The notes under the pieces: generated by a model
What the model was told of the DNA's origin: nothing
Seen by the model: the letters and a program-made list of their open reading frames with translations, nothing else
Database searches by the model: none
Origin: Candidatus Sysuimicrobiota bacterium CSP1-3
GTDB lineage: Bacteria; Sysuimicrobiota; Sysuimicrobiia; Sysuimicrobiales; Humicultoraceae
Length of the DNA: 64,000 nucleotides
Direction: 5' to 3'
Assembly (NCBI GenBank): GCA_001443485.1
Contig: LDXQ01000003.1
Span: forward strand, 20,473 to 84,472
Program-made: the position numbers and the translations under genes
Shown here: piece by piece, positions 29,555 through 54,054 of the stretch
Position numbering within the stretch: the stretch's first letter is position 1
Layout of the letters: the number at the start of each line of letters is the position of its first letter

Positions 29555-29689
29555 GACCTCCCTCCGCCGGGCGACTCCGAGGGCCGGTGACCCCAGCCTG
29601 CGGACGGAGGATTCCGTTTGCGGAAAACGAACGTTTCGTTCCATCCAAAACCGCGCACTGTCGGCCATATTCAGCCAGGGAGGACGCGT

Positions 29690-31048
29690 ATGCCGCAGAC
29701 CAAGTTCGTCCTGGAGGAGCGGGATCTGCCGAAGGCCTGGTACAACATTCTGCCGGATTTGCCGCTGCCGTTGCCTCCGGTCATTCACCCCGCCACCAAG
29801 CAGCCCATCGGCCCGGACGACCTGGCACCACTCTTCCCGCTGGAGATCATCAAGCAGGAGGTCTCCACCGAGCGGGAGATCGAGATCCCCGAGCCCGTGC
29901 GGGACGTCTACCGGCTCTGGCGGCCCACACCGCTGCACCGGGCCCACCGCCTGGAGCGCGCCCTGGGGACCCCCGCGCACATCTACTACAAGTACGAGGG
30001 CACCAGTCCCGCCGGCAGCCACAAGCCGAACACCGCCTTGGCGCAGGCCTTCTACAACAAGCAGGCCGGGGCGCGGCGCCTGACTACCGAGACCGGCGCG
30101 GGGCAGTGGGGCAGCGCGCTCGCCATGGCCTGCCAGTTCTTCGGACTGGAGTGCACCGTCTACATGGTCCGCGTGTCCTATGAACAGAAACCCTACCGCC
30201 GCGTGATGATGGAGACCTGGGGCGCGGAGGTCCTGCCCAGCCCCAGCGAGCGGACGAACGCCGGCCGGGGGATCCGGGCGAAAGACCCCCAATCCCCGGG
30301 GAGCCTGGGCATCGCCATCAGCGAAGCCGTGGAAGATGCCGTCACTCACGACGACACCAAGTACTCCATCGGCAGCGTGGCTAACCACGTGCTCCTGCAC
30401 CAGACCGTCATCGGGCTGGAGGCGAAGAAGCAGATGGAACTGGCCGGCGAGTATCCGGACGTGGTCATCGGCTGCGTGGGCGGCGGCAGCAACTACTCCG
30501 GTCTGGCCTATCCCTTCCTGGCGGACAAGTTCAAGGGGCAGAAGACGCGCTTCGTCGCCGTCGAACCGGAGGCCTGCCCCTCGCTCACGCGCGGCGCCTA
30601 CCTCTACGACTTCGGCGACACCGCCGCAACCACGCCCCTCTTTAAGATGTACACGCTGGGCCACACGTTTGTCCCGCCGGGCATCCACGCCGGCGGGCTG
30701 CGCTACCATGGCGACGCCCCCTCGCTCTGCCTGCTCTACGATGCGGGCTACGTCGAGGCGGCGGCCTACGGGCAGCGGGCGGTCTTCGAGGCGGCCCTGC
30801 AGTTTGCCCGCAACGAGGGGATCATCCCCGCGCCGGAGTCGGCGCACGCGGTGCGCCGGGCGATCGACGAGGCGCTGGAGGCGCGGGAACGCGGCGAGCG
30901 ACGCGTCATCCTCTTCAACTTGAGCGGGCACGGGCACTTCGACCTGAAGGCCTACGAGGAGTACCTCAGCGGCCGGCTGGAAGACTTCGCCTATCCGGCG
31001 GAGGCGGTCGAGGCGGCGTCGCGCGAACTGGCGCTGCTGCAGCCCTAA
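29690..31048 (+). CDS. trpB2: TrpB-like PLP enzyme (tryptophan synthase beta, TrpB2 class)
   Basis: ATG 29690 follows GGGAGGA. It has the TrpB2-type N-terminus [13 protein letters not shown], the PLP lysine region [11 protein letters not shown] and GGGSNYSG. Confidence 0.85.
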
Positions 31049-31147
31049 ACGTCCACCGATCCTCCCGCTCCGCACGGTCGCGCGGAACGTGCTTGGGGAG
31101 TCGCGCGTCTAACGTGGCGACTTCACCTCGCGAAGGAAGGTGCGACG

Positions 31148-31852
31148 ATGCAGCGGATCTTGTGGGGAGGCGTTGTCCTGTTCGTGATGCTGGGTGTTGC
31201 GGGCGCGGTGCTGCCGCCGCTGGTGCCGGCGGCCAGCGCGCAGCCACCGCCGGAGGTGCAGTTCGACATCACGGGCGTGGGGCGGGTGGGTCTGGAACCC
31301 GACTACGGCATCGTCGTCTTCGCCGTGCGGTCGATCAGCCGGACGGCGCAGGGGGCGATCGGCGAGAACGCCCGCGCCATCGACGCCCTGACGAAAGCCC
31401 TGCGCACCTTTACCCGCCCGGGTGACCGGATCGAGACCGCGGGCTTCCAGCTGGGACCGGAGCGCGGGGGGTTCGTCGTGGTGAACCAGGTGCAGGTGCG
31501 CACCACGCAAGTGCAGGAGGTCGGACGGCTCATCGACCTGGCGGTGGGCGCGGGCGCGGACGACATCAGCGCGGTGGCCTTCGGGCGGGAGCACACCAAG
31601 GAGGCCGCGCAGCGCGCCGTCCGCGAGGCGATGCAGCGCGCCCGGGAGAACGCCGAGGCGGTGGCCGCGGGCCTGGGGATGCGGGTGCAGCGCATCACGC
31701 ACATCGAGCCCTCGCTGGAACAGATCGAGGGCCCGCTGGTGGCGCGGGACTATGCGCCGGCGTCCCGGCCGGCGATGGAGCCGACGCAGATCCAGCCCGG
31801 TCGCCTCACGCTGACGGCGCACGTGCGCGTGCGGTTCCTGCTCGGTCCGTAA
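31148..31852 (+). CDS. SIMPL (DUF541) domain protein, secreted
   Basis: It has a signal anchor and SIMPL-like segments (AIGENARAIDALTKAL...QPGRLTLTAHVRVRF). Confidence 0.7.
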   Translation: MQRILWGGVVLFVMLGVAGAVLPPLVPAASAQPPPEVQFDITGVGRVGLEPDYGIVVFAVRSISRTAQGAIGENARAIDALTKALRTFTRPGDRIETAGFQLGPERGGFVVVNQVQVRTTQVQEVGRLIDLAVGAGADDISAVAFGREHTKEAAQRAVREAMQRARENAEAVAAGLGMRVQRITHIEPSLEQIEGPLVARDYAPASRPAMEPTQIQPGRLTLTAHVRVRFLLGP

Positions 31853-41116: not shown

Positions 41117-41524
41117 GTGGAGTTCGTCCTCGGACAGCGCGCCACCGTCAGCAAGACCATCACCGCGGCGGACGTCGACACTTTCGCCGGACTGAGCGGG
41201 GACTTCAACCCGCTGCACGTCGACGCCGCGTTCGCGGCCCGCACCCGCTTCGGCGAACGGATCGCCCACGGGATGCTCACCGCCGGCCTGATCTCCGCAG
41301 TCCTGGGGATGCAGCTGCCCGGACCGGGCGGGATCTACCTCAGCCAGACGCTGCGCTTCCTGAAACCGGTGCGCATCGGGGAGGCGATTACCGCGGCGGC
41401 CGAGGTGACGGCGTACGACCCGCAGCGCCGCCGGCTGACCCTGCATACGACGTGCACGAACCAGCGGGGGGAGATGGTGCTCGACGGGGAGGCGGTGCTG
41501 CTGGTAGAACCGCCGGGCGGCTAG
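41117..41524 (+). CDS. MaoC-like (R)-specific enoyl-CoA hydratase / dehydratase
   Basis: GTG start. The hotdog hydratase motif is SGDFNPLHVD...IAHGML. Confidence 0.85.
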   Translation: MEFVLGQRATVSKTITAADVDTFAGLSGDFNPLHVDAAFAARTRFGERIAHGMLTAGLISAVLGMQLPGPGGIYLSQTLRFLKPVRIGEAITAAAEVTAYDPQRRRLTLHTTCTNQRGEMVLDGEAVLLVEPPGG

Positions 41525-41949
41525 GCCGGGGCGCCGCGGCAGTCCGCGCAGAGGCCGCGGAAGACGACGGCCTGCTCTTTGACGACGAACCCGCCGCGCT
41601 GCGCCGCGGGGATCTCTACCGGGGTCATCTCGACGAAGACGTCCTTCACTTTCCCGCAGCGCTCGCAGACCAGGTGATGGTGGTCGTTGATGTTGGTGCA
41701 GAAGCGCATGCTGCCCGTGCCCAGGTCGAGCGGCCGGACCGCCCGCACCTCTTCCAGTTCCGCCAGGACGGCGTAGACGGTGCGCAGCGACATGGACGGT
41801 ATCTCGCGCACGGCCCGCACGTAGAGTGCCTCCGCGGTGGGGTGGTCGGCCTGGGTCTCCTCCAAGAGGCGGAAGATCAGGTCCCGCTGCGGCGTGATGC
41901 GCCGGCCGGCCGCCTGGAAGCGCTCCCGCAAGTCACCGCTGGTGATCAT
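41521..41949 (-). CDS. Fur family transcriptional regulator
   Basis: ITPQRDLIFRLL, HHHLVCERCGKV and a C-terminal CADC give the Fur/PerR/Zur architecture. Confidence 0.9.
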   Translation of the reverse strand: MITSGDLRERFQAAGRRITPQRDLIFRLLEETQADHPTAEALYVRAVREIPSMSLRTVYAVLAELEEVRAVRPLDLGTGSMRFCTNINDHHHLVCERCGKVKDVFVEMTPVEIPAAQRGGFVVKEQAVVFRGLCADCRGAPA

Positions 41950-41959
41950 ACAGACGGGT

Positions 41960-42025
41960 TACACCTAACAACGATTGTTTCGCAATTCTATTGTTCGGTA
42001 GTCAAGAATTAGGATAGCCTAACCC
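41960..42025. promoter_or_regulatory. AT-rich divergent control region with three short palindromes (candidate Fur-family operators)
   Basis: AACAA-CGA-TTGTT (41967-41979), CAAT-TCT-ATTG (41983-41993) and TTAGG-ATAG-CCTAA (42009-42022). ATTGTT is repeated 16 nt apart. The region lies between fur and the FTR1 permease gene. Confidence 0.45.
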
Positions 42026-42100
42026 AGGAGCGGAAATCCAGTACCGGGCCGCCCCGGCGTCTGCCGGTCGGCCAACCCTGACGGGCCCGAGAGGAGTCAC

Positions 42101-42943
42101 ATGACCGAGATGGGACCCTCGCTGCTGATCACCCTGCGCGAAGGCCTCGAGGCGGCGCTCATCGTCGGCATCATCCTGGCCTATCTCGCCCGGACCGGCA
42201 ACCGCGACAAGTCGGGTGCTGTCTGGTTCGGCGCAGCAGTCAGCGTCCTGCTGAGCCTGCTGGTCGGCGCGGGGATCTTCCTCACCGCGGGCGGCATCGA
42301 GGGGCGGGCGGAGGAAATCTTTGAAGGCAGTGCGATGTTCGCCGCCGCCGGCGTCCTGACATACATGATCTTCTGGATGCGCCGCCAGGCCATCAACATC
42401 CGCGCGCACCTGCAGGCGCAGGTGCAGACAGCGCTGGAGACCGGATCGGTCTGGGCACTAGGCCTGCTGGCCTTCGTGGCGGTGGGGCGCGAGGGCGTGG
42501 AGACGGCGCTCTTCATGTTTGCCACGACGAAGACGGCGACGCCGCTGGCGGCGACAGTCGGCGGACTGTTGGGCCTGGGCGCGGCGATCATCCTCGGCTA
42601 CCTGCTCTACCGCGGGACCTACCGGCTGAACCTGCGCGCCTTCTTCAACGTGACCAGCGTCCTGCTGCTGCTCTTTGCCGCGGGGTTGCTGGCGCACGGC
42701 ATCCACGAATTCCACGAAGCCGGCGTAATCCCGCCTATCGTCGAGTCGCTGTGGGACACCAACGCGATCGTGGATGAGGCTTCCACGCTCGGCGGTTTCC
42801 TCAAGGCGCTCTGGGGGTACAATGGTAACCCCTCGCTCGTCGAAGTCCTCGCCTACACGGGATACCTCCTGCTGGTGGGGTGGATGTACTTCCGCCCGCC
42901 CACGGCGAAAGAACTGCGTCCCACCACGGAGCGCGCGCGCTGA
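42101..42943 (+). CDS. FTR1/EfeU family high-affinity iron permease
   Basis: It has two REXXE iron-binding motifs (REGLEAAL and REGVETAL) and seven hydrophobic segments. Confidence 0.9.
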   Translation: MTEMGPSLLITLREGLEAALIVGIILAYLARTGNRDKSGAVWFGAAVSVLLSLLVGAGIFLTAGGIEGRAEEIFEGSAMFAAAGVLTYMIFWMRRQAINIRAHLQAQVQTALETGSVWALGLLAFVAVGREGVETALFMFATTKTATPLAATVGGLLGLGAAIILGYLLYRGTYRLNLRAFFNVTSVLLLLFAAGLLAHGIHEFHEAGVIPPIVESLWDTNAIVDEASTLGGFLKALWGYNGNPSLVEVLAYTGYLLLVGWMYFRPPTAKELRPTTERAR

Positions 42944-42987
42944 TCCGCGGCCGGGACGAACGCGCAGCGGCCCAGTAGAATAGAGCC

Positions 42988-43701
42988 ATGATGCGGGAGG
43001 CCCTCCTGCTCGTGCTGGAGGGGTTGACCCCCTTCGCCGACGCCTGGGCGCTACAGCGGCGGCTGGTCGCCGCCCGCCAGCAAGGCATCATCTCCGACGT
43101 GGTCATCCTCCTGGAACATCAGCCTGTCCTCACCATCGGGCGGTCGGGCGGCCCCGGTCATCTGCTCGTGCCCCGCGACCTGCTGGCGGAGCGCGGCGTC
43201 GAGGTCCACGACATCGAGCGCGGCGGCGGCGCCACCTACCACGGACCGGGGCAGCTGGTGGCTTACCCCATCCTCGACCTCCGCGCCCTCGATGAGGATG
43301 TCGTGCGCTTCATGCGGGCGCTGGAGGAGTCGATCATCCGCACCGTCGCCGACTTTGGGATCACGGGGTCGCGGCGGCGCGGCTTCCCCGGGGTCTGGGT
43401 GGGAGAGGCGAAAATCGCCGCGGTGGGCGTGGCGGTGAAGCGACGCGTGACGATGCACGGCATGGCCCTCAACGTCACCACCGACCTGGAGCCCTTCACC
43501 TGGATCAATCCCTGCGGCCTGGGCCGCCCCGTCACGTCCATGGCGCAGACGCTGGGGCGGGAGGTCGCGCGGGCGGAGGTGGCGGACGCCTACGCGCGGC
43601 GCTTCGTCGAGGTGTACTCCCTGCACCTGACGCCGGTGGCGCGCGAGGACGTGGAGCAGCGGCTCACCGCACTCGCCGTAAGTGGAGCGGTGGTGTCCTG
43701 A
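42988..43701 (+). CDS. lipB: Octanoyltransferase (lipoyl(octanoyl) transferase)
   Basis: LEHQPVLTIGR, RGGGATYHGPGQLV, AAVGVAV and HGMALNV are LipB signatures. Confidence 0.9.
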   Translation: MMREALLLVLEGLTPFADAWALQRRLVAARQQGIISDVVILLEHQPVLTIGRSGGPGHLLVPRDLLAERGVEVHDIERGGGATYHGPGQLVAYPILDLRALDEDVVRFMRALEESIIRTVADFGITGSRRRGFPGVWVGEAKIAAVGVAVKRRVTMHGMALNVTTDLEPFTWINPCGLGRPVTSMAQTLGREVARAEVADAYARRFVEVYSLHLTPVAREDVEQRLTALAVSGAVVS

Positions 43702-44843
43702 TGCCGTCACGCCGCCGCTTCGAGACCCGGGCGATCCACGACGGCCAGGAGCCCGATCCGACGACGGGGGCGGTGATCACCCCGATCTACCAGACCTCCA
43801 CCTACGTGCAGCAGGCGCCGGGCGAGCACCGCGGCTACGACTACTCGCGCACCGCCAATCCGACGCGCACCGCGCTGGAACGGGCGCTGGCCTCACTGGA
43901 AGAGGCGGAGTACGGACTGGCCTTCGCCTCGGGCATGGCCGCCATCACGACCGCCGCGCTGCTGCTCTCCCCCGGCGACCACGTCGTCGCACCCGATGAC
44001 GTCTACGGGGGGACCTACCGCCTCTTCGTCCGCGTGCTGCAGCGCTACGGCATCGACACGACGTTCGTGGACATGACCGAGGTGGCCGCCGTGGAACGCG
44101 CGCGGCGGGAGCGCACGCGCCTGATCTTCATCGAGACGCCGACCAACCCGTACCTGAAGATCCTGGACATCGCCCGCCTCTCCGAGCTGGCGCACGCCCA
44201 CGGCGCGTTGGTGGCGGTCGACAACACCTTCGCCACGCCCTACGTGCAGCAGCCGCTGCGGTTTGGAGCGGATCTAGTGATTCACTCCACGACCAAGTAC
44301 CTCGGCGGTCACAGCGACGTCGTCGGCGGGGCGGTGGCCACCTCGCGCGCCGACCTGTACGAGTCGCTGAAGTTCCATCAGAATGCCGTCGGTGGGGTCC
44401 CCGGTCCCTTCGACTGCTGGCTGGTCCTGCGCGGGCTGCGCACGCTGGCCGTGCGCATGGATCGCCACGCCGAAAACGCCGCCCGGGTGGCGCGGGCGCT
44501 GGTCGAGCACCCGCGGGTGACCCGCGTGTTCTACCCCGGGCTCACCGACCATCCGGGGCGCGACCTGGCGGCGCGGCAGATGCGCAATTCCGGGGGCATG
44601 GTGTCGTTTGTCGTGAACGGGGGCGGCGCCGCGGCGCGACGCGTGGCTTCGCGGACAAGGCTCTTCCTGCTGGCGGAGAGCCTGGGTGGAGTGGAGTCGC
44701 TGATCGACCACCCCGCATCGATGACGCACGCCAGCCTGGTCGGATCACCGCTGGCCGTGGACGAGGGCCTGCTGCGCCTCTCGGTGGGCATAGAGCATGC
44801 AGACGATCTGATCGAGGATCTGCGGCAAGCCCTGGAAACCTGA
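43701..44843 (+). CDS. Cystathionine gamma-synthase/gamma-lyase family PLP enzyme
   Basis: YSRTANPT and the PLP lysine in STTKYLGGHSD place it in the Cys/Met-metabolism PLP family. The start overlaps the lipB stop by 1 nt. Confidence 0.9.
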   Translation: MPSRRRFETRAIHDGQEPDPTTGAVITPIYQTSTYVQQAPGEHRGYDYSRTANPTRTALERALASLEEAEYGLAFASGMAAITTAALLLSPGDHVVAPDDVYGGTYRLFVRVLQRYGIDTTFVDMTEVAAVERARRERTRLIFIETPTNPYLKILDIARLSELAHAHGALVAVDNTFATPYVQQPLRFGADLVIHSTTKYLGGHSDVVGGAVATSRADLYESLKFHQNAVGGVPGPFDCWLVLRGLRTLAVRMDRHAENAARVARALVEHPRVTRVFYPGLTDHPGRDLAARQMRNSGGMVSFVVNGGGAAARRVASRTRLFLLAESLGGVESLIDHPASMTHASLVGSPLAVDEGLLRLSVGIEHADDLIEDLRQALET

Positions 44844-44849
44844 AGTGAG

Positions 44850-45158
44850 GTGAGGGTAGTGGCAACGGTCTACGTCCCCGCTCCCCTCCGGCGCCAGACC
44901 GGGGGGCAGAGCCGCGTGCAGGTGCCGGGGACCACGGTGCGCGAGGTCCTGGCGAATCTCGGGACGGTCTATCCGGGGGTGGGCGCGCAGGTGCAAGACG
45001 AGGCCGGGCACGTCCGCGCCTACATCAACATCTTCGTCAACGGCAACGAGATGCGCACGCTGCGCGGCGAGGATACTCCGGTGGGGCCGCAGGACGAGGT
45101 CTCGATTATCCCGGCGATGGCCGGCGGGCTGGTCGCGTTGGGGACGGCCGGACGATGA
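44850..45158 (+). CDS. MoaD/ThiS/CysO-like sulfur-carrier protein with C-terminal extension after the GG motif
   Basis: 102 aa of beta-grasp type (YINIFVNGNE...DEVSIIPAMAGG) followed by LVALGTAGR. The stop overlaps the next start (ATGA). Confidence 0.8.
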   Translation: MRVVATVYVPAPLRRQTGGQSRVQVPGTTVREVLANLGTVYPGVGAQVQDEAGHVRAYINIFVNGNEMRTLRGEDTPVGPQDEVSIIPAMAGGLVALGTAGR

Positions 45159-46552
45159 GGGTGGAGACGCGCGCCGGCGAGCGCATCCACGGCAGCATCC
45201 TGGACGTCGTCGGCCACACGCCGCTGGTCCGCCTGCACAAGGTGGCGCGCGGCGTGCGCGCCGACGTGGTGGCCAAACTGGAGTTCATGAACCCCGGCGG
45301 CTCGGTGAAGGACCGGATCGGCGTGCGCATGATCGCCGACGTGGAGGCGCAGGGGAAGCTTCGACCCGGCGGGACGATCGTTGAAGCCACCTCGGGCAAC
45401 ACCGGCATGGGACTGGCCATCGTCGCCGCTGTGAGGGGCTATCGCTGCATCTTCGTCATGCCGGACAAGATGTCGGAGGAGAAGATCCGGCTGCTGCGGG
45501 CTTTCGGCGCAAGAGTCGTGATCACCCCGACGGCGGTGGCCCCGGAGGACCCGCGCTCCTACTACAGCGTCAGTCGGCGGCTGGCCGAGGAGACGCCCAA
45601 CGCCTGGTACGCCGACCAGTACCACAACCCGGACAACCCCGCCGCCCACTACGAAACCACCGGACCGGAGATCTGGGAAGACACCGCCGGCCGGATTGAC
45701 GTCTTCGTCTGCGGCATGGGGACGGGCGGGACCATCTCCGGCGTGGGCCGCTATCTGAAGGAGCGCAATCCCAACCTCAAGGTCGTCGGTGTGGACCCCA
45801 TCGGCTCCGTTTACACCGAGTATTTCCGCAGCGGCAAGATGATCGCGCCGCGCACCTATAAGGTGGAGGGGATCGGCGAGGACTTCCTCCCGGGGACGAT
45901 GGACTTCAGCGTGGTGGACGAGGTGGTGGCGGTCAATGACCGGGAGTCCTTCCTGGTGACCCGCCGCCTGGTGCGGGAGGAGGGGATCTTCTGCGGCGGC
46001 AGCAGCGGCACCGCGGTGGCCGGGGCGCTGCGCTACCTGCGCAGCCTGGCCAACCACGGCGAGGGGAAGCGGGCCGTGATCATCCTCCCCGACTCCGGGT
46101 TTCGGTATCTCTCCAAGGTCTTCTCCGACGACTGGATGCGGGAGAACGGCTTCCTGGAGGCCGAGATGGGCACGGTGGCCGATCTGCTGCGGGCCAAGGG
46201 TCTGCCGCTGATCACGGCCACACCGGACGAACCGGTGCGGGCGGTGATCGCCAAGATGAAGCAGTACGACGTCTCGCAGCTACCGGTCGTCGGCGACGGC
46301 GGCCTGGTCGGGATGGTCAGCGAGGTCGACCTGTTGTCCTACCTGCTGGAAGGCGGCCACGGCCTCGACGACCCGATCACGCCGATCGTCGATCCCGCGC
46401 CGCCCGTGGTCACCCCGGACACCCCCGTGGACAACCTCGCCGACGCCTTCCTCAACGCTAACGCGGCCATCGTCGTGGACGGCGGCCGTCTTGTCGGCAT
46501 CGTCACCAAGATCGACGTGATCGACCACCTCGCCCGGATCCTCGGTCGGTAG
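45155..46552 (+). CDS. Cystathionine beta-synthase-like PLP enzyme (cysteine synthase fold plus CBS-domain pair)
   Basis: NPGGSVKDR, SGNTGMGLA and GTGGTISG, plus a C-terminal tandem CBS pair (DVSQLPVV...IVTKIDVIDHL). Confidence 0.9.
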   Translation: MRVETRAGERIHGSILDVVGHTPLVRLHKVARGVRADVVAKLEFMNPGGSVKDRIGVRMIADVEAQGKLRPGGTIVEATSGNTGMGLAIVAAVRGYRCIFVMPDKMSEEKIRLLRAFGARVVITPTAVAPEDPRSYYSVSRRLAEETPNAWYADQYHNPDNPAAHYETTGPEIWEDTAGRIDVFVCGMGTGGTISGVGRYLKERNPNLKVVGVDPIGSVYTEYFRSGKMIAPRTYKVEGIGEDFLPGTMDFSVVDEVVAVNDRESFLVTRRLVREEGIFCGGSSGTAVAGALRYLRSLANHGEGKRAVIILPDSGFRYLSKVFSDDWMRENGFLEAEMGTVADLLRAKGLPLITATPDEPVRAVIAKMKQYDVSQLPVVGDGGLVGMVSEVDLLSYLLEGGHGLDDPITPIVDPAPPVVTPDTPVDNLADAFLNANAAIVVDGGRLVGIVTKIDVIDHLARILGR

Positions 46553-47391
46553 TGACCCGCCCCGCGCGTCTCCCCTCCGATCAGCCGCTCCCTACCCTGC
46601 GCATCGTGGCGGCAGAGGAGGTCCACCTGCACGAGGACGCCGACCCGCGGCGCGTGGCCGGCCTCGTCGAGCAACTGGCGACCGAAGGCGTGCTGCGCAA
46701 CCCGCCGCTGGCGGCGGCGCTGCCGGGGGGCGGCTACGTCATCCTCGACGGCGCGAACCGCACCAGCGCGCTGCGGCAGCTGGACCTACCGTATCACCTG
46801 CTGCAGATCGTGGAGTACGCGGCGCCGGAGGTGCGGTTGGAGGTCTGGCATCACCTCCTGCGGGAGGACGGGCACGCGCTGACGCGGTTCCTGCCGGAGA
46901 ACGCGCTGATCGACATCCCCAGCGCGGACCGGCTGCGCAAAGACCTGCAGGATGGGCGGCTGGCCTGCGGCTTGATCACGGAGAACGGCGTCCAGGGCGT
47001 TGGCTCCGAGCGGCCGTTCCCGGCGCGCGTCGCCGCGCTGCGCGCGGTCGTCGGCGCGTACAACGGGCGCGTGCCTATCTACCGGGTCCTGACCACGGAC
47101 CTCGCAGTGCTGCGGGCGGAATACGACCGCATCGGCGTGCTGGTGGTCTTCCCGCGCTTCTCTAAGGAAGAGATCCGGCACTTGGCCGCCCTGCCGGAGA
47201 AGCTGCCCACCGGGATCACCCGCCACGTCATCCCGAATCGGGCCCTCCGGGTGAACCTTCCGCTGGATGTCCTGCGCGGCCGGGGGTCGCGAGAGGAGAA
47301 GAATGCCGTCCTCCACGACCTGATCCACGCGCGACTGCTCGCCCACCGGGTGCGCGTCTACCCGGAACCCACCGTCCTGTTTGACGACTAA
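46552..47391 (+). CDS. ParB/Srx-fold protein resembling SbnI/SerK free-serine kinases
   Basis: GTG 46552 overlaps the CBS stop by 1 nt. It has VHLHEDADPRR...LRNPPL...YVILDGANRTSAL (a ParB/Srx DGxxR-type core) and the C-terminal LPTGITRHVIPNRALRVNLPLDVL. The family assignment rests on motif memory, not on a search. Confidence 0.6.
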   Translation: MTRPARLPSDQPLPTLRIVAAEEVHLHEDADPRRVAGLVEQLATEGVLRNPPLAAALPGGGYVILDGANRTSALRQLDLPYHLLQIVEYAAPEVRLEVWHHLLREDGHALTRFLPENALIDIPSADRLRKDLQDGRLACGLITENGVQGVGSERPFPARVAALRAVVGAYNGRVPIYRVLTTDLAVLRAEYDRIGVLVVFPRFSKEEIRHLAALPEKLPTGITRHVIPNRALRVNLPLDVLRGRGSREEKNAVLHDLIHARLLAHRVRVYPEPTVLFDD

Positions 47392-47392
47392 G

Positions 47393-48289
47393 GTGTCCAG
47401 CGGTCTCCTGGACCGGATCGGCAGTACCCCGCTGCTGCGGGTGAAGCGTCTGCGCGGGATTCCGCCGCGCGTGGAGATCCTGGCGAAGGCGGAGTGGTTC
47501 AATCCGGGGGGATCGGTGAAGGACCGGCCCGTCCTCCGCATGATCGAGGACGCGGAGCGTGAAGGCCGGCTCACAGCGGACAAGATCGTGCTCGATTCAT
47601 CCTCGGGGAATGCCGGCATCGCCTATGCGATGCTCGGCGCGGCGAAAGGCTACCGCGTCGAACTGGTCATCCCGGAGAACGTCAGCGCGGAGCGGAAGCG
47701 GATCATCCGCGCGTTCGGCGCGACGGTCATCTCCTCGGACCCGTTGGAGGGGTCCGACGGCGCCATCCGCCTGGCCCACGAGCGCTTCGCCGCGGCCCCG
47801 GACCGCTATTGTATGCCCGACCAGTACAACAACCCGAGCAACTGGCGCGCCCACTACGACACGACCGGACCGGAGATCATCGCCCAGAGTGAGGGGCGCA
47901 TCACGCACTTCGTCGCCGGATTGGGCACGTCCGGCACGCTCGTCGGCGTCGGCCGGCGCCTGCGCGAATGGAACCCCGACGTGCAGATCGTCGCGGTGGA
48001 GCCCGACGGGCCGCTGCACGGGCTGGAGGGGCTGAAGCACATGGCCACCTCCATCGTGCCGGGGATCTACGATCCGTCGGTGCACCATCGCGTCATCGGC
48101 GTGCAGACCGAGCCCGCCTACGCGATGACCCGCCGCCTGACGCAGGAAGAGGGGTGGTTGGTCGGGCCCTCCGCCGGGGCGGCGATGCTGGCGGCGGTGC
48201 AGGTGGCGCAGGAGGAAGGAGCCGGCGTGATCGTCGTCGTCCTGCCGGACGGCGGCGACCGCTACCTCTCCACAGAGGTGTTCGGATAG
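47393..48289 (+). CDS. cysM: CysM-like cysteine synthase (O-phosphoserine / carrier-thiocarboxylate type suspected)
   Basis: GSTPLL, NPGGSVKDRP, SSGNAGIAYA and ITHFVAGLGTSGTLVGVGRRLRE closely parallel mycobacterial CysM as I recall it. The start is GTG 47393 or TTG 47381. Confidence 0.85.
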   Translation: MSSGLLDRIGSTPLLRVKRLRGIPPRVEILAKAEWFNPGGSVKDRPVLRMIEDAEREGRLTADKIVLDSSSGNAGIAYAMLGAAKGYRVELVIPENVSAERKRIIRAFGATVISSDPLEGSDGAIRLAHERFAAAPDRYCMPDQYNNPSNWRAHYDTTGPEIIAQSEGRITHFVAGLGTSGTLVGVGRRLREWNPDVQIVAVEPDGPLHGLEGLKHMATSIVPGIYDPSVHHRVIGVQTEPAYAMTRRLTQEEGWLVGPSAGAAMLAAVQVAQEEGAGVIVVVLPDGGDRYLSTEVFG

Positions 48290-48313
48290 ATGGCGGCGCG
48301 GGTGGTCGCCTAG

Positions 48314-48715
48314 ATGGCGCTGCGGCTCTCGTCCGATCACCTGCAGGACGTGGTCGCCCACGCCCGGGAGACCTTTCCCCACGAGTGCTGCGGGCTGCTC
48401 GCCGGGCGCGACGGGCGGGTGGTCCGCGTGTGCCGCGGGCGCAACGTGGATGAGAGCCCGTACACCTACCGCCTGGACGACCGGCAGTTGCTGCAGTTCT
48501 TGCGGGAGATGGATCAGGACGGGCTGGACATTGTCGGCATCTACCACTCGCACACCGCGTCGGAGGCGACGCCTTCGCGCACGGACGTGGCCAGGGCATT
48601 CTATCCGGAGGCGGTGTATGTGATAATATCCCTACAGCATCCGGAGCATCCGGTGGTCCGCGGGTTCCGCATCGTCGATGGGACCGTCGCCGAAGAGGAC
48701 GTGATCGTCCAGTGA
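48314..48715 (+). CDS. JAMM/MPN+ (M67) metalloprotease, Mec+-like
   Basis: It has the conserved Glu (PHECCG) and the JAMM motif HSHTASEATPSRTD (HxHx7Sx2D). Confidence 0.9.
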   Translation: MALRLSSDHLQDVVAHARETFPHECCGLLAGRDGRVVRVCRGRNVDESPYTYRLDDRQLLQFLREMDQDGLDIVGIYHSHTASEATPSRTDVARAFYPEAVYVIISLQHPEHPVVRGFRIVDGTVAEEDVIVQ

Positions 48716-49173
48716 AGGTCAGCACCCGGCCCGAGCACGCGACCCGCGCGGTGAAGGTGAGTAGCCGCGCGGAGTACGGCATGCGTGCGCTTGTGGATCT
48801 GGCCCTCCACTACGGCGAGGGCTACGTGCAGAGCCACGACATCGCGGCCCGGCAGGGGCTCCCCGAATCCTACCTCAACCAGATCATGACCACGCTCCGC
48901 CGCGCGGGACTGGTCTCGAGCAAGCGCGGGCCAGCCGGCGGGCACACGCTCTCGCGTTCGCCCGACGCGATCACCCTGCGGGAAGCCTTCGAAGTGCTCG
49001 AAGAGGGCGCCTCCCCGTGGTGGTGCGTGGAAGTGGAAGATCCTGACTGCGCATACGCCCCCGGCTGTGGCGTCCGGCCCATCTGGATGGCCATGAAGAC
49101 CGCGGCCGAGGGCGTCCTGGACCGCCTCACCCTGCTGGACATTGCCAGCACCCGCACCCCTGTTAAGAAGTAA
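48712..49173 (+). CDS. Rrf2 family transcriptional regulator (three-Cys, Fe-S type)
   Basis: GTG 48712 overlaps the JAMM stop (GTGA). A second Rrf2-like start is at 48751 (VKVSSRAEYGMRAL). It has a wHTH and the Cys cluster CVEVEDPDCAYAPGC. Confidence 0.85.
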   Translation: MKVSTRPEHATRAVKVSSRAEYGMRALVDLALHYGEGYVQSHDIAARQGLPESYLNQIMTTLRRAGLVSSKRGPAGGHTLSRSPDAITLREAFEVLEEGASPWWCVEVEDPDCAYAPGCGVRPIWMAMKTAAEGVLDRLTLLDIASTRTPVKK

Positions 49174-49345
49174 CCCCCCGGCTGTTCGGCAGGACATCGG
49201 CCCCCCGTGGTCGAAGCCTCCAGGTACGGGGCAGGGCACCCCGGACACGCAGGTCTGGCCCGACCATCGAAGGGCGGGGGCGAGGGCCCCATCTGGGCGC
49301 GATTGTCAGGGATGCCCTGTCCTTCGCTTTCCGCGCGCCGCCGCC

Positions 49346-49371
49346 GAAATTTCCCCCCGCGCCTCCTCGTT
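49346..49371 (+). promoter_or_regulatory. SigR/SigH-type (ECF) promoter-like element upstream of the sigma gene
   Basis: GAAAT (49346-49350), an 18-nt spacer, then GTT (49369-49371). The remembered consensus is GGAAT-N18-GTT. Confidence 0.4.
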
Positions 49372-49380
49372 GAGACGATA

Positions 49381-50022
49381 GTGGAGGCGGCGGCACTGGA
49401 GTCCCGATCCTTGGCGTTGAATCAGCCCTCCGGAGATGCCTCGGCCGGCCAGGAGTTCGCGGCGCTGGTCGAGTCAAATCTGGACGGCCTCTACGGCGCG
49501 GCGCTGCGTCTGACCCGCACCCGCGACAGGGCGGAGGATCTGGTCCAGGAGACCTTCCTCAAGGCCTGGCGCTCCTTCCATTCCTTCCAACCGGGGACCA
49601 ACGCGCGGGCCTGGCTTTACCGCATCATGATGAACGCCTACATCGACTCCTACCGGAAGGCCGATCGGGAACCGGAAATCGTCGATCAAGAGGACGTGGA
49701 GGAGCAGTACCTGTACAGCCGGGTACAGGAGAGCGAGGAACTGCGTCGGCAGGGTAACCCGGAGGAGATCACGCTCCAGGCCGTCATGGACGCGGACGTA
49801 GAAGAGGCCCTGGCCTCGCTGCCCGAGTCCTTCCGCGCCGCCGTCATCCTGGCCGACCTCGAGGGCTTCGCGTACAAGGAGATCGCGCAGATCCTCGGCG
49901 TCCCCATCGGCACGGTGATGTCCCGGCTCTTCCGCGGTCGGCGCCTGCTGCAGAAGGCGCTGTGGGAGTATGCCCTGAAGACCCGCCGCATCACGCCGGA
50001 CCAGGAAGGAAGCGCCCGATGA
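49381..50022 (+). CDS. ECF-type RNA polymerase sigma factor (SigR/SigH-like)
   Basis: Region 2 is [19 protein letters not shown]...[15 protein letters not shown]. Region 4 is [29 protein letters not shown]. The start is uncertain (49381, 49411 or 49417 within ORF 49207..50022). Confidence 0.85.
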
Positions 50023-50252
50023 GCACGGTCCACTGCGAAGAGGTCGTCCGCCTGCTCTGGCGGTACATGGACCGGGAACTGGATCCGGACACCTACCGGC
50101 GGCTGCAGGAACACGTCCGGCAGTGCCGCAACTGCGGGCCGCGCCACGAGTTTGAGGCCCGGCTGCGGTCGATCATCCAGGAGAAGTGCGCGGGCCAGCC
50201 CGCGCCCGAAGCCCTGCGCCGTCGCGTCATGGCCCTGCTGCAAGAGCTCTAG
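50019..50252 (+). CDS. Zinc-binding anti-sigma factor (ZAS, RsrA/RshA-like)
   Basis: ATG 50019 overlaps the sigma stop (ATGA). HCEEV...HVRQCRNC gives the H-x3-C-x2-C ZAS motif. The protein is 77 aa and soluble. Confidence 0.8.
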
Positions 50253-50362: not shown

Positions 50363-50752
50363 ATGTCGAGAGAGATCATCAGCACTGACGCTGCGCCCCG
50401 CGCCATTGGACCGTACTCGCAGGCGATGCGGGCGGGTGGATTCCTGTTTCTCTCCGGGCAGATCGCCCTGGATCCCCGCACAGAGCAGCTGGTGGGCGGC
50501 GATATCAAACAGCAGACGCGGCGGGTGCTGGAGAACGTGAAGGCCCTACTGCAAGCGGCGGGCTCCTCGCTCAACCGCGTGGTGAAGTGCACGGTTTTCC
50601 TGGCCGACATGAATGACTTCGGCGCGATGAACGAAGAGTACGGCTCCTTCTTCCAAGAGGAGCCGCCGGCGCGGACTACGGTAGCGGCTAGCCGGCTGCC
50701 TCGCGGTGCGCTCGTGGAGATTGATGTGATCGCGGTGGTAGGGGAGGGGTAA
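50363..50752 (+). CDS. ridA: RidA (YjgF/TdcF) family reactive-intermediate deaminase
   Basis: ATG 50363 follows AGGAGG. It has APRAIGPYSQA, FLSGQIALDP and ARTTVAASRLPRGALVEID. Confidence 0.9.
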   Translation: MSREIISTDAAPRAIGPYSQAMRAGGFLFLSGQIALDPRTEQLVGGDIKQQTRRVLENVKALLQAAGSSLNRVVKCTVFLADMNDFGAMNEEYGSFFQEEPPARTTVAASRLPRGALVEIDVIAVVGEG

Positions 50753-50806
50753 GGGCGGCGAGAGGGTTGACCGGCCCGCCTCGACTTCGGGACAATACAG
50801 TTACGC

Positions 50807-50881
50807 TGGGGGGTCGTCTAGTCGGGAGGACACCGGACTTTGACTCCGGCAACGCAGGATCGAAGCCTGCCCCCCCAGCCA
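50807..50881 (+). tRNA. tRNA-Gln (anticodon UUG), CCA encoded
   Basis: Manual fold: acceptor TGGGGGG/CCCCCCA with a U1:A72 pair, discriminator G73 and CCA. D arm is GTCT-AGTCGGGA-GGAC. Anticodon arm is CCGGA-CTTTGAC-TCCGG. T arm is GCAGG-ATCGAAG-CCTGC, and the A at position 54 is unusual. Confidence 0.85.
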
Positions 50882-50913
50882 GGTTCGAAGATCTCAGATG
50901 ATGCCCGGGCGAA
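50882..50913 (+). repeat. Direct repeat copy 1 (att-like), immediately 3' of tRNA-Gln
   Basis: GGTTCGAAGATCT (50882-50894) is identical to 54147-54159. Ten of the next 19 nt also match. Confidence 0.6.
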
Positions 50914-51161
50914 GGCTCGGGCTTCGAACTCTACTGGGATCCTTCGATCTCTGCCGGTGCTTACGCGAGTCCCTTGGCGCGGCCGGTCGCCCGAAGCAGC
51001 CCACTGACCTCTCATCAGATCGATCTGGACACTTGGGCAAGTTCCTAGATTCAAATGACCCCTCCCCCGCAGTCCCTTTTGTGGACTATCCAGGTCCTTG
51101 GTCGCTACCTACATTCGAGAAGGGAAGATGAACCCGGAAGTCCCGACGAGGAGGTGTCGCT

Positions 51162-51779
51162 GTGAAGAGGCGTCGCATTCTGCTCGCAGTTGTGTTAGCA
51201 GGGTCATTCCTTTTGCCATCGGCGGCGGTCGCGCAGCAGGATTTGCCGCCTGGATCCCTTGTAATCAAGGTACTGGTCGAAAAGAAAGTGGCGCGTTTGC
51301 CGGTAGGGAGGCCAGGGCTTTACTGGCGATTAGAGAACTTCCCCAGTCTTGCTCAAGCGCAGGCAGCCGCCGGCCCCACGGGATTGGCTGCTGAGTCCGC
51401 CGGGAGGGCCTGGCTCTTCACCCTGGGTCCCAAGGGTGGGTCCTCAGCGGGCGGCACCAAGGTAGCGGAGGTTGGACCCCTCCTGCCGGTAGTTGCACCG
51501 GAGTATCTCCTTCGGATCAACGAACCCAGTGGCCCTCTCGGCGGCACAACCATCGTGCACACTCATCCAGGGACCGAAGCGTTCTACGTGCTTACGGGCG
51601 AGCTTTGCGTGCGGACTTCCCAGGGGGTAATCCGTGTTTCGGCCGGCCGGGGCGAGGCGGGTCCGGATGCCTATGTTCCGACGCAGGTCTCCAGCTGCGG
51701 CTCGACGGACCTGCGTGGGCTAGTAATGTTTGTAGTGGACGCTACCAGGCCGTTCTCATCGCCGGCCAGCTTCCCCTAG
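51162..51779 (+). CDS. Secreted cupin-domain protein
   Basis: GTG follows GGAGG. It has a signal peptide (LLAVVLAGSFLLPSAAVAQQ) and the cupin motif HTHPGTEAFYVLTGEL. Confidence 0.7.
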   Translation: MKRRRILLAVVLAGSFLLPSAAVAQQDLPPGSLVIKVLVEKKVARLPVGRPGLYWRLENFPSLAQAQAAAGPTGLAAESAGRAWLFTLGPKGGSSAGGTKVAEVGPLLPVVAPEYLLRINEPSGPLGGTTIVHTHPGTEAFYVLTGELCVRTSQGVIRVSAGRGEAGPDAYVPTQVSSCGSTDLRGLVMFVVDATRPFSSPASFP

Positions 51780-51851
51780 ATCAGGGAAGACGCTGGAACG
51801 TGCTGAGGGCCCGCCTTCCAAGAAGGCGGGCCCTCGGTTTTGGGACTCGCG

Positions 51852-52553
51852 CTAGCGGGTTGGGTTGAGCTTGGCAGTGACACTTCCGCGGACCACATCG
51901 GCAAACTTGCTGAGCTGTAGCCAGCGCGGAAACGCGCGGATCAGTGCCGGCGGGCCGTCGATCTGGGCCAGTCCCTGGTCCATCGCCTCGGCCAGCGTGA
52001 TCCTGCCCAGCCAGACGTGGTAGAACGCCGCGATGTCGGCCGTCACGAGCAGGTCGACGTCGAATCCGGGATCATCGCGACATACCGAGGCATCCCCGGG
52101 CTCAAAGACGAGCCAGAGAGTCTTTCTGCGCCTGCCCTGGAAATTGAACTGTACGACGACCCGCTGCCTGGGTAGCAGATCGAGGTTGATCCGCCGGTGC
52201 ATCCACCACAGCAACAGTGCTGGGTCGAGCTCCTCGGGCCTCGGTTCGGTCAGCGCCCAACGGGCTCCCCACTGCCCCAGATCCCAGACGGCCCTCTGCA
52301 GCTCTTCCCCCGGCGGGGTCAAATGATATTCGCTCCGACCCTCACCATAGGCGCGCCGCTCGAGCAGGCCAAGTCTCCGGAGTCGTTCGAGGCGCCGCTG
52401 GAGCAAGGTCCGCGAGATCCCGGGGAGGCCTCGGGCCAGCTCATTGAAGTGACGGCTGCCGTTCAAGAACTCGCGGACGATCAGGATTGTCCAACGGTCA
52501 CCCAGGATCTCCGCAGCCCGCGCGATTGGACAGTACTGGTTGTATGCTCTCAC
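51852..52553 (-). CDS. HxlR-type winged-helix regulator with C-terminal SCP2-like domain
   Basis: [23 protein letters not shown]...[24 protein letters not shown] chose the internal GTG at 52553. The ORF track start is 52667. Confidence 0.8.
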
Positions 52554-52638
52554 GCCTCGATCATTGCAGGGAGCCGGGAATGTTGTCCAGTCGCATTTTT
52601 GTACTGGATGGCGGGGGAGGCTATCCGCTAGGGTGGTT

Positions 52639-54054
52639 ATGGGAATCATGGGAGCGCTCAGGGCCACAGTGGATCAGGCAGCCTTTGAGGCATTTAGGCG
52701 GTCATTCCGTGGCGAGATCCTCCGACCGGGCGATGCCGGGTATGACGAGGCGCGGAGGATCTGGAACGGAGGCATCGACCGACGGCCGGCGCTGATTGCC
52801 CGATGTGCAGGAACAGCCGACGTCTTGACGGCCGTGCGCTTTGCCCGCGAGCGCGACCTGCCCGCCTCGGTGCGCGGCGGCGGCCATGCGGTGGCCGGTC
52901 ACGCGGTAGTCGACGGGGGGCTCCTCATCGACTTGTCAGCGATGGCCGGCGTGCGCGTCGACCCGGAGACGCGGACCGCGCGAGCCCAAGGCGGATGCCT
53001 GCAGCATCAGCTCGACCGGGAGACTCAGGTCTTCGGCTTGGCCGTCACCGGCGGAATTGTGAGTCACACGGGTATTGGTGGGCTCACCCTGGGGGGCGGC
53101 ATCGGCTGGCTCATGCGCCAGCTGGGGCTCACGGTGGACAACCTGAGGTCCTGCGACGTGGTCACGGCCGACGGTGAGTTCCTCGTGGCCAGCGAGCACG
53201 AGAATCCCGACCTCTTCTGGGGGCTCCGGGGAGGCGGGGGGAACTTCGGGATCGTGACGTCGTTCGAGTACACTCTCCAGCCCGTCGGGCCCATCGTGCT
53301 CGCGGGCCTGATCCTCTACGCCATCGACGATGCTCCTGGTGTGATGCGCTTCTTCCGCGACTTTGTCGGGGAGGCTCCTGACGAAGTTGGCGTCATTGCC
53401 ACCCTGCGCTTGGCCCCGGCGCTTCCGGTGATCCCCGAGCACATGCACGGCATGCCCATTGTGGGGCTCGTGGTCTGCTATGCGGGGCCTGTCAAGGAGG
53501 GGGAAAGGCTGCTCCGTCCCCTCCGGGCGCTCGGCAAGCCGGTTCTCGACGCGATTACCCCGAAGCCGTACCTTGAGCACCAGCAGATGCTTGATCCCGC
53601 CTTTCCCCATGGGCGGCATTACTATTGGAAATCCCGACAACTGCCGCCGCTCACCGACGAAGCGATCGAGGTCATCGTGGAGCACGGGCTCAGGATCACT
53701 TCAGGCTTCTCCTCGGCTCGGATCTTTACACTCGGAGGAGCTGTGGCGCGCGTGGACCAGGACGAGACCGCCTATCCGAACCGTGCCGCCCTTCACGACA
53801 TCAACATCGTCGGCGCTTGGCCGTCGAACGACCCCGACCCCGCGCGGCACGTTGAGTGGGTGCGGGGGTTCTGGTCGGCGCTGGCGCCCTACGCGGGCGG
53901 CGTCTATGTGAACTTCATGTCCGACGAGCCGCAGGCTGCTGTCCAGGCAGCGTACGGGACACACACGTACGCCCGGCTTGTCGCGCTCAAGAAGAAATAT
54001 GATCCCACGAACTTCTTCCGCTTCAACCAGAATATCAGTCCGGTGGGCCCCTGA
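52639..54054 (+). CDS. FAD-linked oxidase (VAO/BBE-like)
   Basis: Internal ATG 52639. It has FAD_binding_4 ([12 protein letters not shown]...GGIGW) and a C-terminal BBE-type NFFRFNQNI. Confidence 0.85.

Follow-up and report, generated by a model that had tools for sequence, protein, structure and literature searches.

We analyzed a 64-kb stretch of DNA from Candidatus Sysuimicrobiota bacterium CSP1-3 (guanine plus cytosine (G+C) content 69-70%), referred to below as the window, and focus on eight adjoining plus-strand genes of sulfur amino acid metabolism, one of which encodes a two-domain protein of the ParB/Srx fold (46552..47391; hereafter the ParB-like protein) that is related to SbnI and SerK and is a candidate L-serine kinase. 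The first gene is lipB, for a lipoyl(octanoyl) transferase (42988..43701; NF010925, 183 bits against a cut-off of 155, with a PF21948 match). It is followed by genes for a pyridoxal phosphate (PLP) enzyme of Cys/Met metabolism, a cystathionine gamma-lyase/synthase of the MetB (Rv1079) type (CGL; 43701..44843; PF01053, E = 8.7e-149; NF005871, 567 bits against 513), for a CysO-like carrier precursor of the ThiS/MoaD type (44850..45158; PF02597, E = 6.6e-13), and for a cystathionine beta-synthase (CBS; 45155..46552; TIGR01137, 543 bits against 510) consisting of a PALP domain and two CBS domains with no heme domain. Downstream of the ParB-like gene are those for a CysM-type cysteine synthase of the PALP fold (47381..48289; TIGR01138 cysM 352 bits, below its cut-off of 394, and cysKM 340 against 344), a JAMM/Mec+-type zinc metalloprotease (48314..48715; Prok-JAB PF14464, E = 8.8e-27) and, as the last gene of the operon, an Rrf2-family regulator (48712..49173; TIGR00738, 111 bits against 73). 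A sequence-only reading of this DNA had assigned the families from motifs, and Pfam or NCBIfam matches support every one of these assignments.

The same reading had described the eight genes as tightly packed on one strand, and the open reading frame (ORF) list and junction sequences agree with it throughout. The lipB and CGL genes share one nucleotide (nt) in a TGATG junction, the carrier gene begins 6 nt after CGL, and the carrier/CBS and CBS/ParB-like junctions are overlaps reading ATGA and TAGTG, respectively. CysM overlaps the ParB-like gene by 11 nt, or stands 1 nt from it if an alternative start (GTG at 47393) is used, and a 24-nt gap separates CysM from the JAMM gene. The JAMM/Rrf2 junction is GTGA; it becomes a 35-nt gap if Rrf2 starts at the GTG at 48751, as it may, since alignment to the family models begins only at residue 15. 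The quoted motifs are likewise present in the translations, among them STTKYLGGHSD in the Cys/Met PLP enzyme and a three-Cys Cx7Cx5C pattern in Rrf2. The arrangement is not due to chance: dozens of related loci repeat this order, and no intrinsic-terminator-like site was found on the plus strand from 42988 to 50252, in a scan that is weak in DNA of 69% G+C.

The ParB-like protein

The ParB-like protein has no match in Pfam. Its NCBIfam matches are near full-length and fall well under the curated cut-offs, to SbnI (NF033589; E = 1.1e-16, 60.9 bits against 350) and to SerK (NF053625; E = 4.3e-8, 32.6 bits against 380), and a sequence search of the PDB returned SbnI and SerK only. With a profile of 45 family sequences the similarity rises to E = 1.3e-25 for SbnI and 1e-11 for SerK, and by sequence SbnI is the nearest relative. 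The same 45-sequence alignment gave an AlphaFold2 model (predicted local distance difference test score (pLDDT) 92; predicted template modeling score (pTM) 0.89) that was compared with the PDB using Foldseek, and the top nine matches are all SerK or SbnI (E ~1e-17, template modeling (TM) scores 0.63-0.82, 235-269 aligned columns) at ~19-20% identity. The next matches, to Noc, ParB and sulfiredoxin, have E values of 6e-4 or worse and cover only the N-terminal domain of ~80 residues; the ParB-like protein also has the C-terminal domain that sets SerK and SbnI apart. The homology to SerK and SbnI that had been proposed from the letters alone is thus found over the full length of both domains.

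The residues expected of a kinase of this fold are also in place. E28 of the ParB-like protein, in an LHE motif, aligns with E30 of SerK and E20 of SbnI, D66, in the DGxxR motif (LDGANR), aligns with D58 of SbnI, and a TRH motif is common to the ParB-like protein and SerK; all three features are invariant in 45 family members. SerK E30 is the residue mutated (E30A/E30Q) in PDB entries 5x0e and 5x0j, by the entry titles. The SbnI residues E20 and D58, matching E28 and D66 here, are those that we take to be catalytic after the work of Verstraete et al. 2018. On the evidence of the alignment and the model, the ParB-like protein has the predicted fold and putative catalytic residues of free serine kinases, which agrees with the earlier assignment to this fold, and it is predicted, most likely, to phosphorylate free L-serine to O-phosphoserine. 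Judged by its scores it is an ortholog of neither SerK nor SbnI and belongs to a putative separate, third subfamily. The subfamily is large, with 1,766 clusters at E <= 1e-3 and 1,102 at E <= 1e-10 in a profile search of 1.84 billion representative proteins, and occurs in CSP1-3, Chloroflexota and Latescibacterota; in the source databases its members are named only 'hypothetical' or 'ParB N-terminal domain-containing'.

Conserved neighborhoods, fusions and partner proteins

A genome scan yielded at least 538 relatives of the ParB-like protein, and the best 80 loci were examined. The closest relatives come from metagenome-assembled genomes (MAGs) labeled Armatimonadota, 'Bacillati bacterium ANGP1' or Sysuimicrobiota, which together correspond to the candidate phylum CSP1-3. 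Dozens of CSP1-3 MAGs keep the gene order, and the related loci fall into four operon variants. In variant A, the form seen in the window (lipB, CGL, carrier, CBS, ParB-like, CysM, JAMM, Rrf2, sigma factor, anti-sigma factor and, in some, RidA), CGL stands upstream in this order in 22 loci. Variant B (nine loci) runs lipB, carrier, ParB-like, CysM, JAMM, Rrf2 and onward with no CBS, variant D (three loci) runs lipB, ParB-like, CysM, JAMM and onward, and variant C (five loci: L007-L010 and L033) is reduced to lipB, ParB-like, JAMM, Rrf2 and onward, with no carrier or CysM nearby. Because of these variants we regard carrier, ParB-like protein, CysM and JAMM as the core, and CGL and CBS as an optional pair around the carrier. 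Of the 80 loci, 45 have JAMM, 41 CysM, 41 Rrf2 and 34 the carrier no more than 6 kb from the ParB-like gene. One MAG supplied both L009 and L032 and may hold full and reduced copies in one genome, or be a strain-mixed bin. The lipB gene, directly upstream in 35 of the 80 loci, is the first gene of every variant, including the shortest; we have no functional explanation at hand for its link with the sulfur genes.

Much of this shared context could be inheritance within one phylum, and we therefore moved the search outside CSP1-3. A set of 113 loci of the Chloroflexota type was assembled from the genome loci L042-L080 and a metagenome scan seeded with an Anaerolineae copy. The most frequent sulfur-related neighbor there is a DUF59 (FeS_assembly_P) gene, which comes directly after the ParB-like gene in 18 of the 113 loci, often in the order CBS, ParB-like, DUF59 (L049, L055, L059, L060, L106, L113, L138 and L152 among others). 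CBS is directly upstream in 17 loci, where CysM is usually absent, and Rieske (seven), SufU (six), ThiF E1 (five) and ThiS carrier (five) genes also adjoin; SufS is recurrent in tblastn screens and has no cluster of its own in the neighbor tally. Two further recurrent neighbors, a DDAH/ADI-like gene (10 loci) and a gene read by eye as a P-type ATPase (seven), have no evident sulfur link. In the Anaerolineae locus L047 the order is SufS, SufU, Rieske, ParB-like, carrier, a rhodanese and ThiF E1 protein, and CysM; L160 reads ParB-like, carrier, DUF59, CysM, E1; and in L112, L116 and L145 JAMM and E1 genes stand immediately upstream of the ParB-like gene. The association of the ParB-like gene with carrier, CysM and JAMM, which the sequence-only reading had suggested looking for in other genomes, is therefore conserved in CSP1-3 and recurs independently in a second phylum.

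The family also occurs in fusion proteins. In four clusters (P0189, P0201, P0242 and P0250), and in four further partial clusters, a ParB-like domain is attached C-terminally to a D-2-hydroxyacid dehydrogenase. In NCBIfam the dehydrogenase is matched best by phosphoglycerate dehydrogenase SerA (TIGR01327, 357-382 bits in three of the four clusters and 163 bits in P0201); the aligned stretch is the catalytic core (positions 1-307 of the 525 in the model), with the ParB-like domain standing where the regulatory domains of SerA usually sit. One such gene (L161:6001-7764) follows genes for PGK, FBPase, aldolase and a class V aminotransferase; the best NCBIfam matches of this aminotransferase are AGT/BhcA-like (serC_3, 91 bits against 402). 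The SerA fusion ties the ParB-like family specifically to the serine/phosphoserine node, and it fits the role of archaeal SerK in channeling serine to 3-phosphoglycerate (PMC5120207). A JAMM::ParB-like fusion also exists (P0144; L162:6001-7317). Its gene is directly downstream of Fer4_11, NrfD and molybdopterin oxidoreductase genes that look like a polysulfide or thiosulfate reductase. Carrier::ParB-like proteins of 371 residues occur in variant B genomes (P0047, P0061 and P0067 are among the carrier-fusion proteins). As proof of partnership this last fusion is weakened, since the carrier is fused equally often to CBS and always to the next downstream gene; the JAMM::ParB-like and SerA core::ParB-like fusions are free of that weakness.

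The carrier itself is encoded as a precursor. In the window it ends in PAMAGG followed by a nine-residue tail, LVALGTAGR, and its best PDB match by sequence is Mycobacterium tuberculosis CysO (3dwg_C, E = 6.6e-13). None of the 34 related carriers ends in Gly-Gly: 24 have tails of 1-25 residues and 10 are fused in frame to CBS (L019, L029, L030, L037-L040, L043, L052 and L069). A tail or fusion of this kind would mean, a point that the sequence-only reading had not made, that cleavage after Gly-Gly is needed before any E1 acts. The adjoining JAMM protease would be the obvious candidate for this maturation, and carrier trimming by a JAMM protease parallels HcyD and QbsD. The metal site of the protease is intact (Glu in HECCG, and HSHx7Sx2D), and its best PDB match is 2kks (E = 5.3e-25). 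Lesser resemblances are those of the carrier to SAMP1 (57 bits against a cut-off of 60) and of the protease to desampylase (92 against 130).

An E1 to activate the carrier is absent from the window, as had been noted: tblastn with the E1 of a related locus gave a best E value of 0.35 for the 64 kb, and Pfam searches of 40 of its other ORFs found no ThiF. The accompanying proposal of a self-contained pathway thus does not stand, since an E1 would have to lie elsewhere. Nine related loci with the variant A order have a ThiF gene 6-10 kb downstream of ParB-like. The counterpart of that position in the window is past a tRNA-Gln gene (50807-50881), among non-syntenic genes of lower G+C. Over 50767-54054, a promoter-like site precedes tRNA-Gln, which follows RidA, and beyond it the G+C fraction falls to 0.64-0.65. 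The genes there encode a 205-residue protein without a Pfam match, an HxlR protein and a BBE-type FAD oxidase, and the region may have arisen by insertion or rearrangement at the tRNA.

Sequence identity of the window CysM is 43% with the E. coli enzyme and 44% with that of M. tuberculosis (the sequence used for the latter is identical to PDB 3dwg chain A), with search scores of 228 and 202 bits, respectively. It does not have the C-terminal extension that M. tuberculosis CysM carries. At the position of M. tuberculosis Arg220 the window enzyme has Lys; this position is uninformative as to substrate, since the O-acetylserine-using E. coli CysM has Arg as well. The window CysM is 56% identical to the CysM of L047, which sits beside a carrier and an E1, and this supports, without proving, its membership of a carrier-dependent subgroup. 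No serine acetyltransferase was found among the window proteins in a Pfam scan. A further PALP-fold enzyme of 476 residues (window 29618-31281), adjoining tRNA-Thr (31185-31281), is probably threonine synthase-like.

CBS and the Cys/Met PLP enzyme had been paired as transsulfuration enzymes, and both reach the curated cut-offs of M. tuberculosis-type families. The best PDB match of CBS is M. tuberculosis Rv1077 (E = 1.9e-123, full length), and that of the PLP enzyme is 8sf4, a CGL/CGS (E = 1.5e-144); the NF005871 model bears the name gamma-synthase, and the sequence leaves the reaction direction undecided. We read the pair as reverse transsulfuration. The conserved, overlapping CBS and ParB-like genes also leave it possible that CBS may use O-phosphoserine. 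Elsewhere in the window, genes for an S-adenosylmethionine (SAM) decarboxylase (12074-12538) and a SAM hydroxide adenosyltransferase of the DUF62 type (23432-24286) accompany these methionine-to-cysteine genes.

Beyond Rrf2 lie, in the order that had been given for them, plus-strand genes for an extracytoplasmic function (ECF) sigma factor of the SigH/SigR type (49381..50022, probably starting at the GTG at 49381; Sigma70_r2 and Sigma70_r4_2 matches; TIGR02947, 196 bits, below 252), an RsrA-type zinc-binding anti-sigma factor (50019..50252; TIGR03988, 69.5 bits against 62.5; zf-HC2 match) joined to it by an ATGA overlap, and RidA, a reactive enamine/imine deaminase (50363..50752; PF01042, E = 6.3e-43); Pfam and NCBIfam matches agree with all three identities. 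Between Rrf2 and the sigma gene is a promoter of the SigR/SigH type, GAAAT-N18-CGTT (49346..49371, plus strand), and 35 of 37 related loci have GGAAT-N16-19-CGTT at the corresponding position. The sulfur genes themselves had been placed under thiol-redox control, for which we find no promoter support. A search for GGAAT-N17-19-GTT with one mismatch allowed found no site in the gap upstream of lipB in the window, and in 42 related loci GGAAT-N16-19-CGTT was present upstream of lipB in two and upstream of the carrier gene in one; a SigR-type promoter before the sulfur genes was rejected on this basis, the motif being conserved only before the sigma gene. For the same reason we treat sigma, anti-sigma and RidA as a separate, self-regulated unit beside the operon. 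The sigma and anti-sigma genes appear to form a unit with SigR-RsrA features, namely an Hx3Cx2C motif in the anti-sigma factor (read from the translation) and an autoregulatory promoter, with the sigma factor below the SigH_actino cut-off. RidA is kept after the anti-sigma gene in 19 related loci and would make sense beside four PLP enzymes that release enamines.

The operon has a likely start of its own. A -10-like hexamer, TAGAAT (42976..42981, plus strand), ends 6 nt before the lipB ATG, a TAGAAT or TAAGAT box lies 6-10 nt before lipB in L004, L006, L037, L038 and L048, and the box is probably the promoter of a leaderless operon mRNA starting at lipB. The sigma gene also seems leaderless (49346-49383), like the lipB operon, its -10 element ending 6-10 nt before the start codon. 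The three-Cys Rrf2 protein, which scores below the named equivalogs CymR (85 against 195 bits) and IscR (70 against 208), most likely regulates the operon. Directly upstream of lipB are divergent genes for a Fur-family regulator and an FTR1 iron permease (window 41521-42943), and related loci likewise keep either Fur with FTR1 or Fur with an ABC transporter at this place. Genes for iron uptake, cysteine supply and a redox sigma factor thus share one neighborhood.

Proposed route and alternatives

We suggest, with moderate confidence, that this is a cysteine-supply operon of CSP1-3 (Sysuimicrobiota), in which a candidate serine kinase feeds a carrier/CysM/JAMM route that is accompanied by CBS and CGL. 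In the first step the ParB-like protein would phosphorylate free L-serine with a nucleotide to give O-phosphoserine. The carrier, seen as a precursor with nine residues after Gly-Gly, would be trimmed to Gly-Gly by the JAMM protease, and an E1 of the MoeZ/ThiF type encoded elsewhere would adenylate and thiocarboxylate it. By analogy with CysO/CysM/Mec+ of M. tuberculosis, CysM would then form an aminoacrylate from O-phosphoserine, which the carrier thiocarboxylate would attack, and after an S-to-N shift JAMM would free cysteine from the carrier-Cys adduct. In parallel, CBS and CGL would convert homocysteine and serine (or O-phosphoserine) through cystathionine to cysteine. All the computational tests that could be applied support this central interpretation, and the substrates it gives to the candidate kinase and to CysM are predictions.

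Several observations weigh against it. The ParB-like protein lies far below the ortholog cut-offs of both SbnI and SerK, so its substrate could differ, and CysM is equally distant from the O-phosphoserine-specific enzyme of M. tuberculosis and the O-acetylserine-using enzyme of E. coli. O-phosphoserine is also available from SerA and SerC, so that a kinase is not strictly required. The five variant C loci keep the ParB-like and JAMM genes without a carrier or CysM nearby, and most Chloroflexota copies of the ParB-like gene have unrelated neighbors and no adjoining sulfur genes. The carrier is fused only to the gene downstream of it, CBS or ParB-like, which may reflect tolerated read-through.

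An unlikely alternative is that the ParB-like protein interconverts serine and O-phosphoserine mainly for the adjoining CBS, either feeding an O-phosphoserine-dependent CBS or cysteine synthase or, in reverse, substituting for SerB, and that its adjacency to CysM is secondary. CBS next to ParB-like is indeed the most widely conserved adjacency, with a start/stop overlap in the window, and 17 of the 113 Chloroflexota-type loci keep it, CysM being usually absent there. We know, however, of no characterized CBS that depends on O-phosphoserine. Nine CSP1-3 loci have carrier, ParB-like, CysM and JAMM with no CBS at all, and in L047 and L160 the ParB-like gene accompanies a carrier, an E1 and CysM. 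The fusions to the SerA core, in an apparent serine-pathway context, would suit this alternative too. As for the reverse direction, a 2026 preprint (GapMind) proposes that SbnI-like DUF1015 kinases can replace SerB, although the same preprint finds the reverse kinase reaction thermodynamically unfavorable, and its DUF1015 proteins are a different family from the ParB-like protein.

It also seems improbable that CysM is an ordinary sulfhydrylase using O-acetylserine with thiosulfate or sulfide, that the carrier and JAMM serve some other sulfur-transfer or protein-modification task, and that the ParB-like protein is uncoupled from them. The marginally closer match of CysM to the E. coli enzyme, the missing C-terminal extension, and the resemblance of carrier and protease to SAMP1 and desampylase would all fit such an arrangement. 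CysO is nevertheless the best solved relative of the carrier, the window holds no serine acetyltransferase, and the carrier/ParB-like/CysM/JAMM block is kept across variants and recurs in a second phylum; moreover, neighborhoods of ThiS, JAB and cysteine synthase are a recognized class (Iyer 2006).

We consider it quite improbable that the ParB-like protein is something other than a serine kinase, whether a kinase of homoserine or threonine, a DNA-binding regulator resembling the second function of SbnI, or a nucleoside triphosphate-dependent switch. Room for this is left by the low identity to SerK and SbnI, by the annotation of SbnI as a bifunctional regulator and kinase, and by a report that a SerK-like archaeal protein binds CTP and not ATP (PMC12704722). 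Against it stand the invariant catalytic Glu and Asp and the presence of the C-terminal domain specific to SerK and SbnI; the fusion to a phosphoglycerate dehydrogenase core points specifically to the serine pathway, and the recurrent partners are beta-replacement PALP enzymes, which use activated serine. Finally, the notion that the ParB-like protein replaces the E1 by activating the carrier C-terminus with a nucleotide, for which one could cite the lack of an E1 in the window, the carrier::ParB-like fusions, the nucleotide binding of the ParB/Srx fold, the phosphoryl ester that sulfiredoxin makes on a protein and the place of sulfiredoxin among the Foldseek matches, was rejected as very improbable because family members in related loci have canonical E1 genes near them (6-10 kb downstream in nine, and beside the ParB-like gene in L047, L112, L116, L145 and L160) and because the carrier is also fused to CBS, so that its fusion partners look positional.

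Beyond the cysteine-supply operon proposed above, a wider reading that joins these observations is possible and is offered tentatively. O-phosphoserine might be the common activated form of serine for a carrier-dependent CysM and an O-phosphoserine-dependent enzyme of the CBS type; a polyprotein-like carrier, synthesized in precursor form or in one chain with its client CBS or kinase, might be released by a single JAMM protease that also frees cysteine; and in other lineages, where the kinase domain replaces the regulatory domain of SerA, the family might in general gate serine and phosphoserine where central carbon metabolism meets that of cysteine and Fe-S.

Free serine kinases are so far known from a few hyperthermophilic archaea and one staphylococcal siderophore pathway. 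The present locus points to a third, bacterial subfamily, which, to judge by the operon around it, would activate serine for making cysteine. If so, it would be a source of O-phosphoserine for carrier-dependent cysteine synthesis outside the SerA/SerC route, an extra step for the automatic reconstruction of amino acid biosynthesis in uncultured phyla, and a natural case of a sulfur carrier fused to client enzymes and freed by a JAMM protease. All of the parts are small soluble proteins, which makes reconstitution in vitro practical.

Comparison with known systems

Every part of the operon has a known relative, and what we have not found described is the wiring of a kinase candidate into a cysteine operon. 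The sequence-only reading had claimed as much, and it has held up: a full-text literature search, with subscription journals outside its scope, returned no paper connecting SerK or SbnI to CysO, to CysM or to thiocarboxylate chemistry, and no description of a serine kinase in a CysO/CysM/Mec operon. The two CSP1-3 genome papers are silent on such an arrangement, and a 2025 survey of the ParB-CTPase fold (PMC12704722) treats SerK and SbnI as isolated examples only. The locus falls in the same predicted operon class as types 4c and 4d of Iyer, Burroughs and Aravind 2006, which combine ThiS/MoaD, JAB, E1 and cysteine synthase; their survey includes no ParB-like or kinase gene, and the word ParB occurs in it zero times.

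The closest characterized system is mec-cysO-cysM of M. tuberculosis (Rv1334-1336), which has the same three parts, a ThiS/MoaD carrier, a CysM-type PALP enzyme and a JAMM protease. Neither operon has a linked E1, that of M. tuberculosis being MoeZ, and both genomes have a sigma/anti-sigma pair like SigH/RshA. The operon in the window differs in holding a gene of the SerK/SbnI family, in its gene order, and in the interleaving of CBS and CGL with the carrier. Whereas CysO ends in Gly-Gly, the carrier in the window has a tail and those of its relatives are tailed or fused; the window CysM lacks the C-terminal extension and has Lys in place of Arg220, and no SigH-type promoter is conserved upstream.

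Two systems are related through the kinase candidate. SerK of Thermococcus kodakarensis (TK0378), an ADP-dependent free serine kinase whose product goes to an O-phosphoserine sulfhydrylase, has the same two-domain fold as the ParB-like protein (Foldseek E = 9e-18, TM 0.71/0.81), its E30 aligning with E28 and the DGxxR and TRH motifs being conserved. It differs in that identity is ~19%, the score is 33 bits against 380, and SerK is archaeal whereas the window protein is bacterial. The sulfur donor in T. kodakarensis is free sulfide and not a carrier protein. The logic of serine to O-phosphoserine to cysteine is nevertheless the same (PMC5120207), and Makino et al. found no clear SerK homologs in bacteria (PMC5120207). 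In the SbnI-SbnA pair of Staphylococcus, a kinase is likewise matched with an O-phosphoserine-consuming enzyme of the CysK/CysM fold, a pairing for which the window holds a candidate only. The ParB-like protein scores 61 bits against 350 for SbnI, the product in Staphylococcus goes to the siderophore staphyloferrin B and not to cysteine, SbnI is also a heme-responsive regulator, and neither a carrier nor a JAMM protease is involved.

The handling of the carrier has its nearest counterpart in the HcyS/HcyD/HcyF/MetY system of Wolinella succinogenes, in which, as Krishnamoorthy and Begley are said to have described in 2011, a JAMM protease removes the extra C-terminal residue or residues of the carrier and later releases the amino acid. 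There the product is homocysteine, made by an enzyme of the MetY type, whereas here CysM and CBS adjoin the carrier, and what follows the carrier is a tail of 1-25 residues or a whole fused enzyme. The transsulfuration pair is closest to M. tuberculosis Rv1077 and Rv1079: CBS and CGL of the window reach the curated cut-offs, and their best solved relatives are mycobacterial. What sets the present locus apart from that pair is that the CGL and CBS genes flank a carrier gene inside a CysM operon, and that carrier and CBS are fused in 10 related MAGs.

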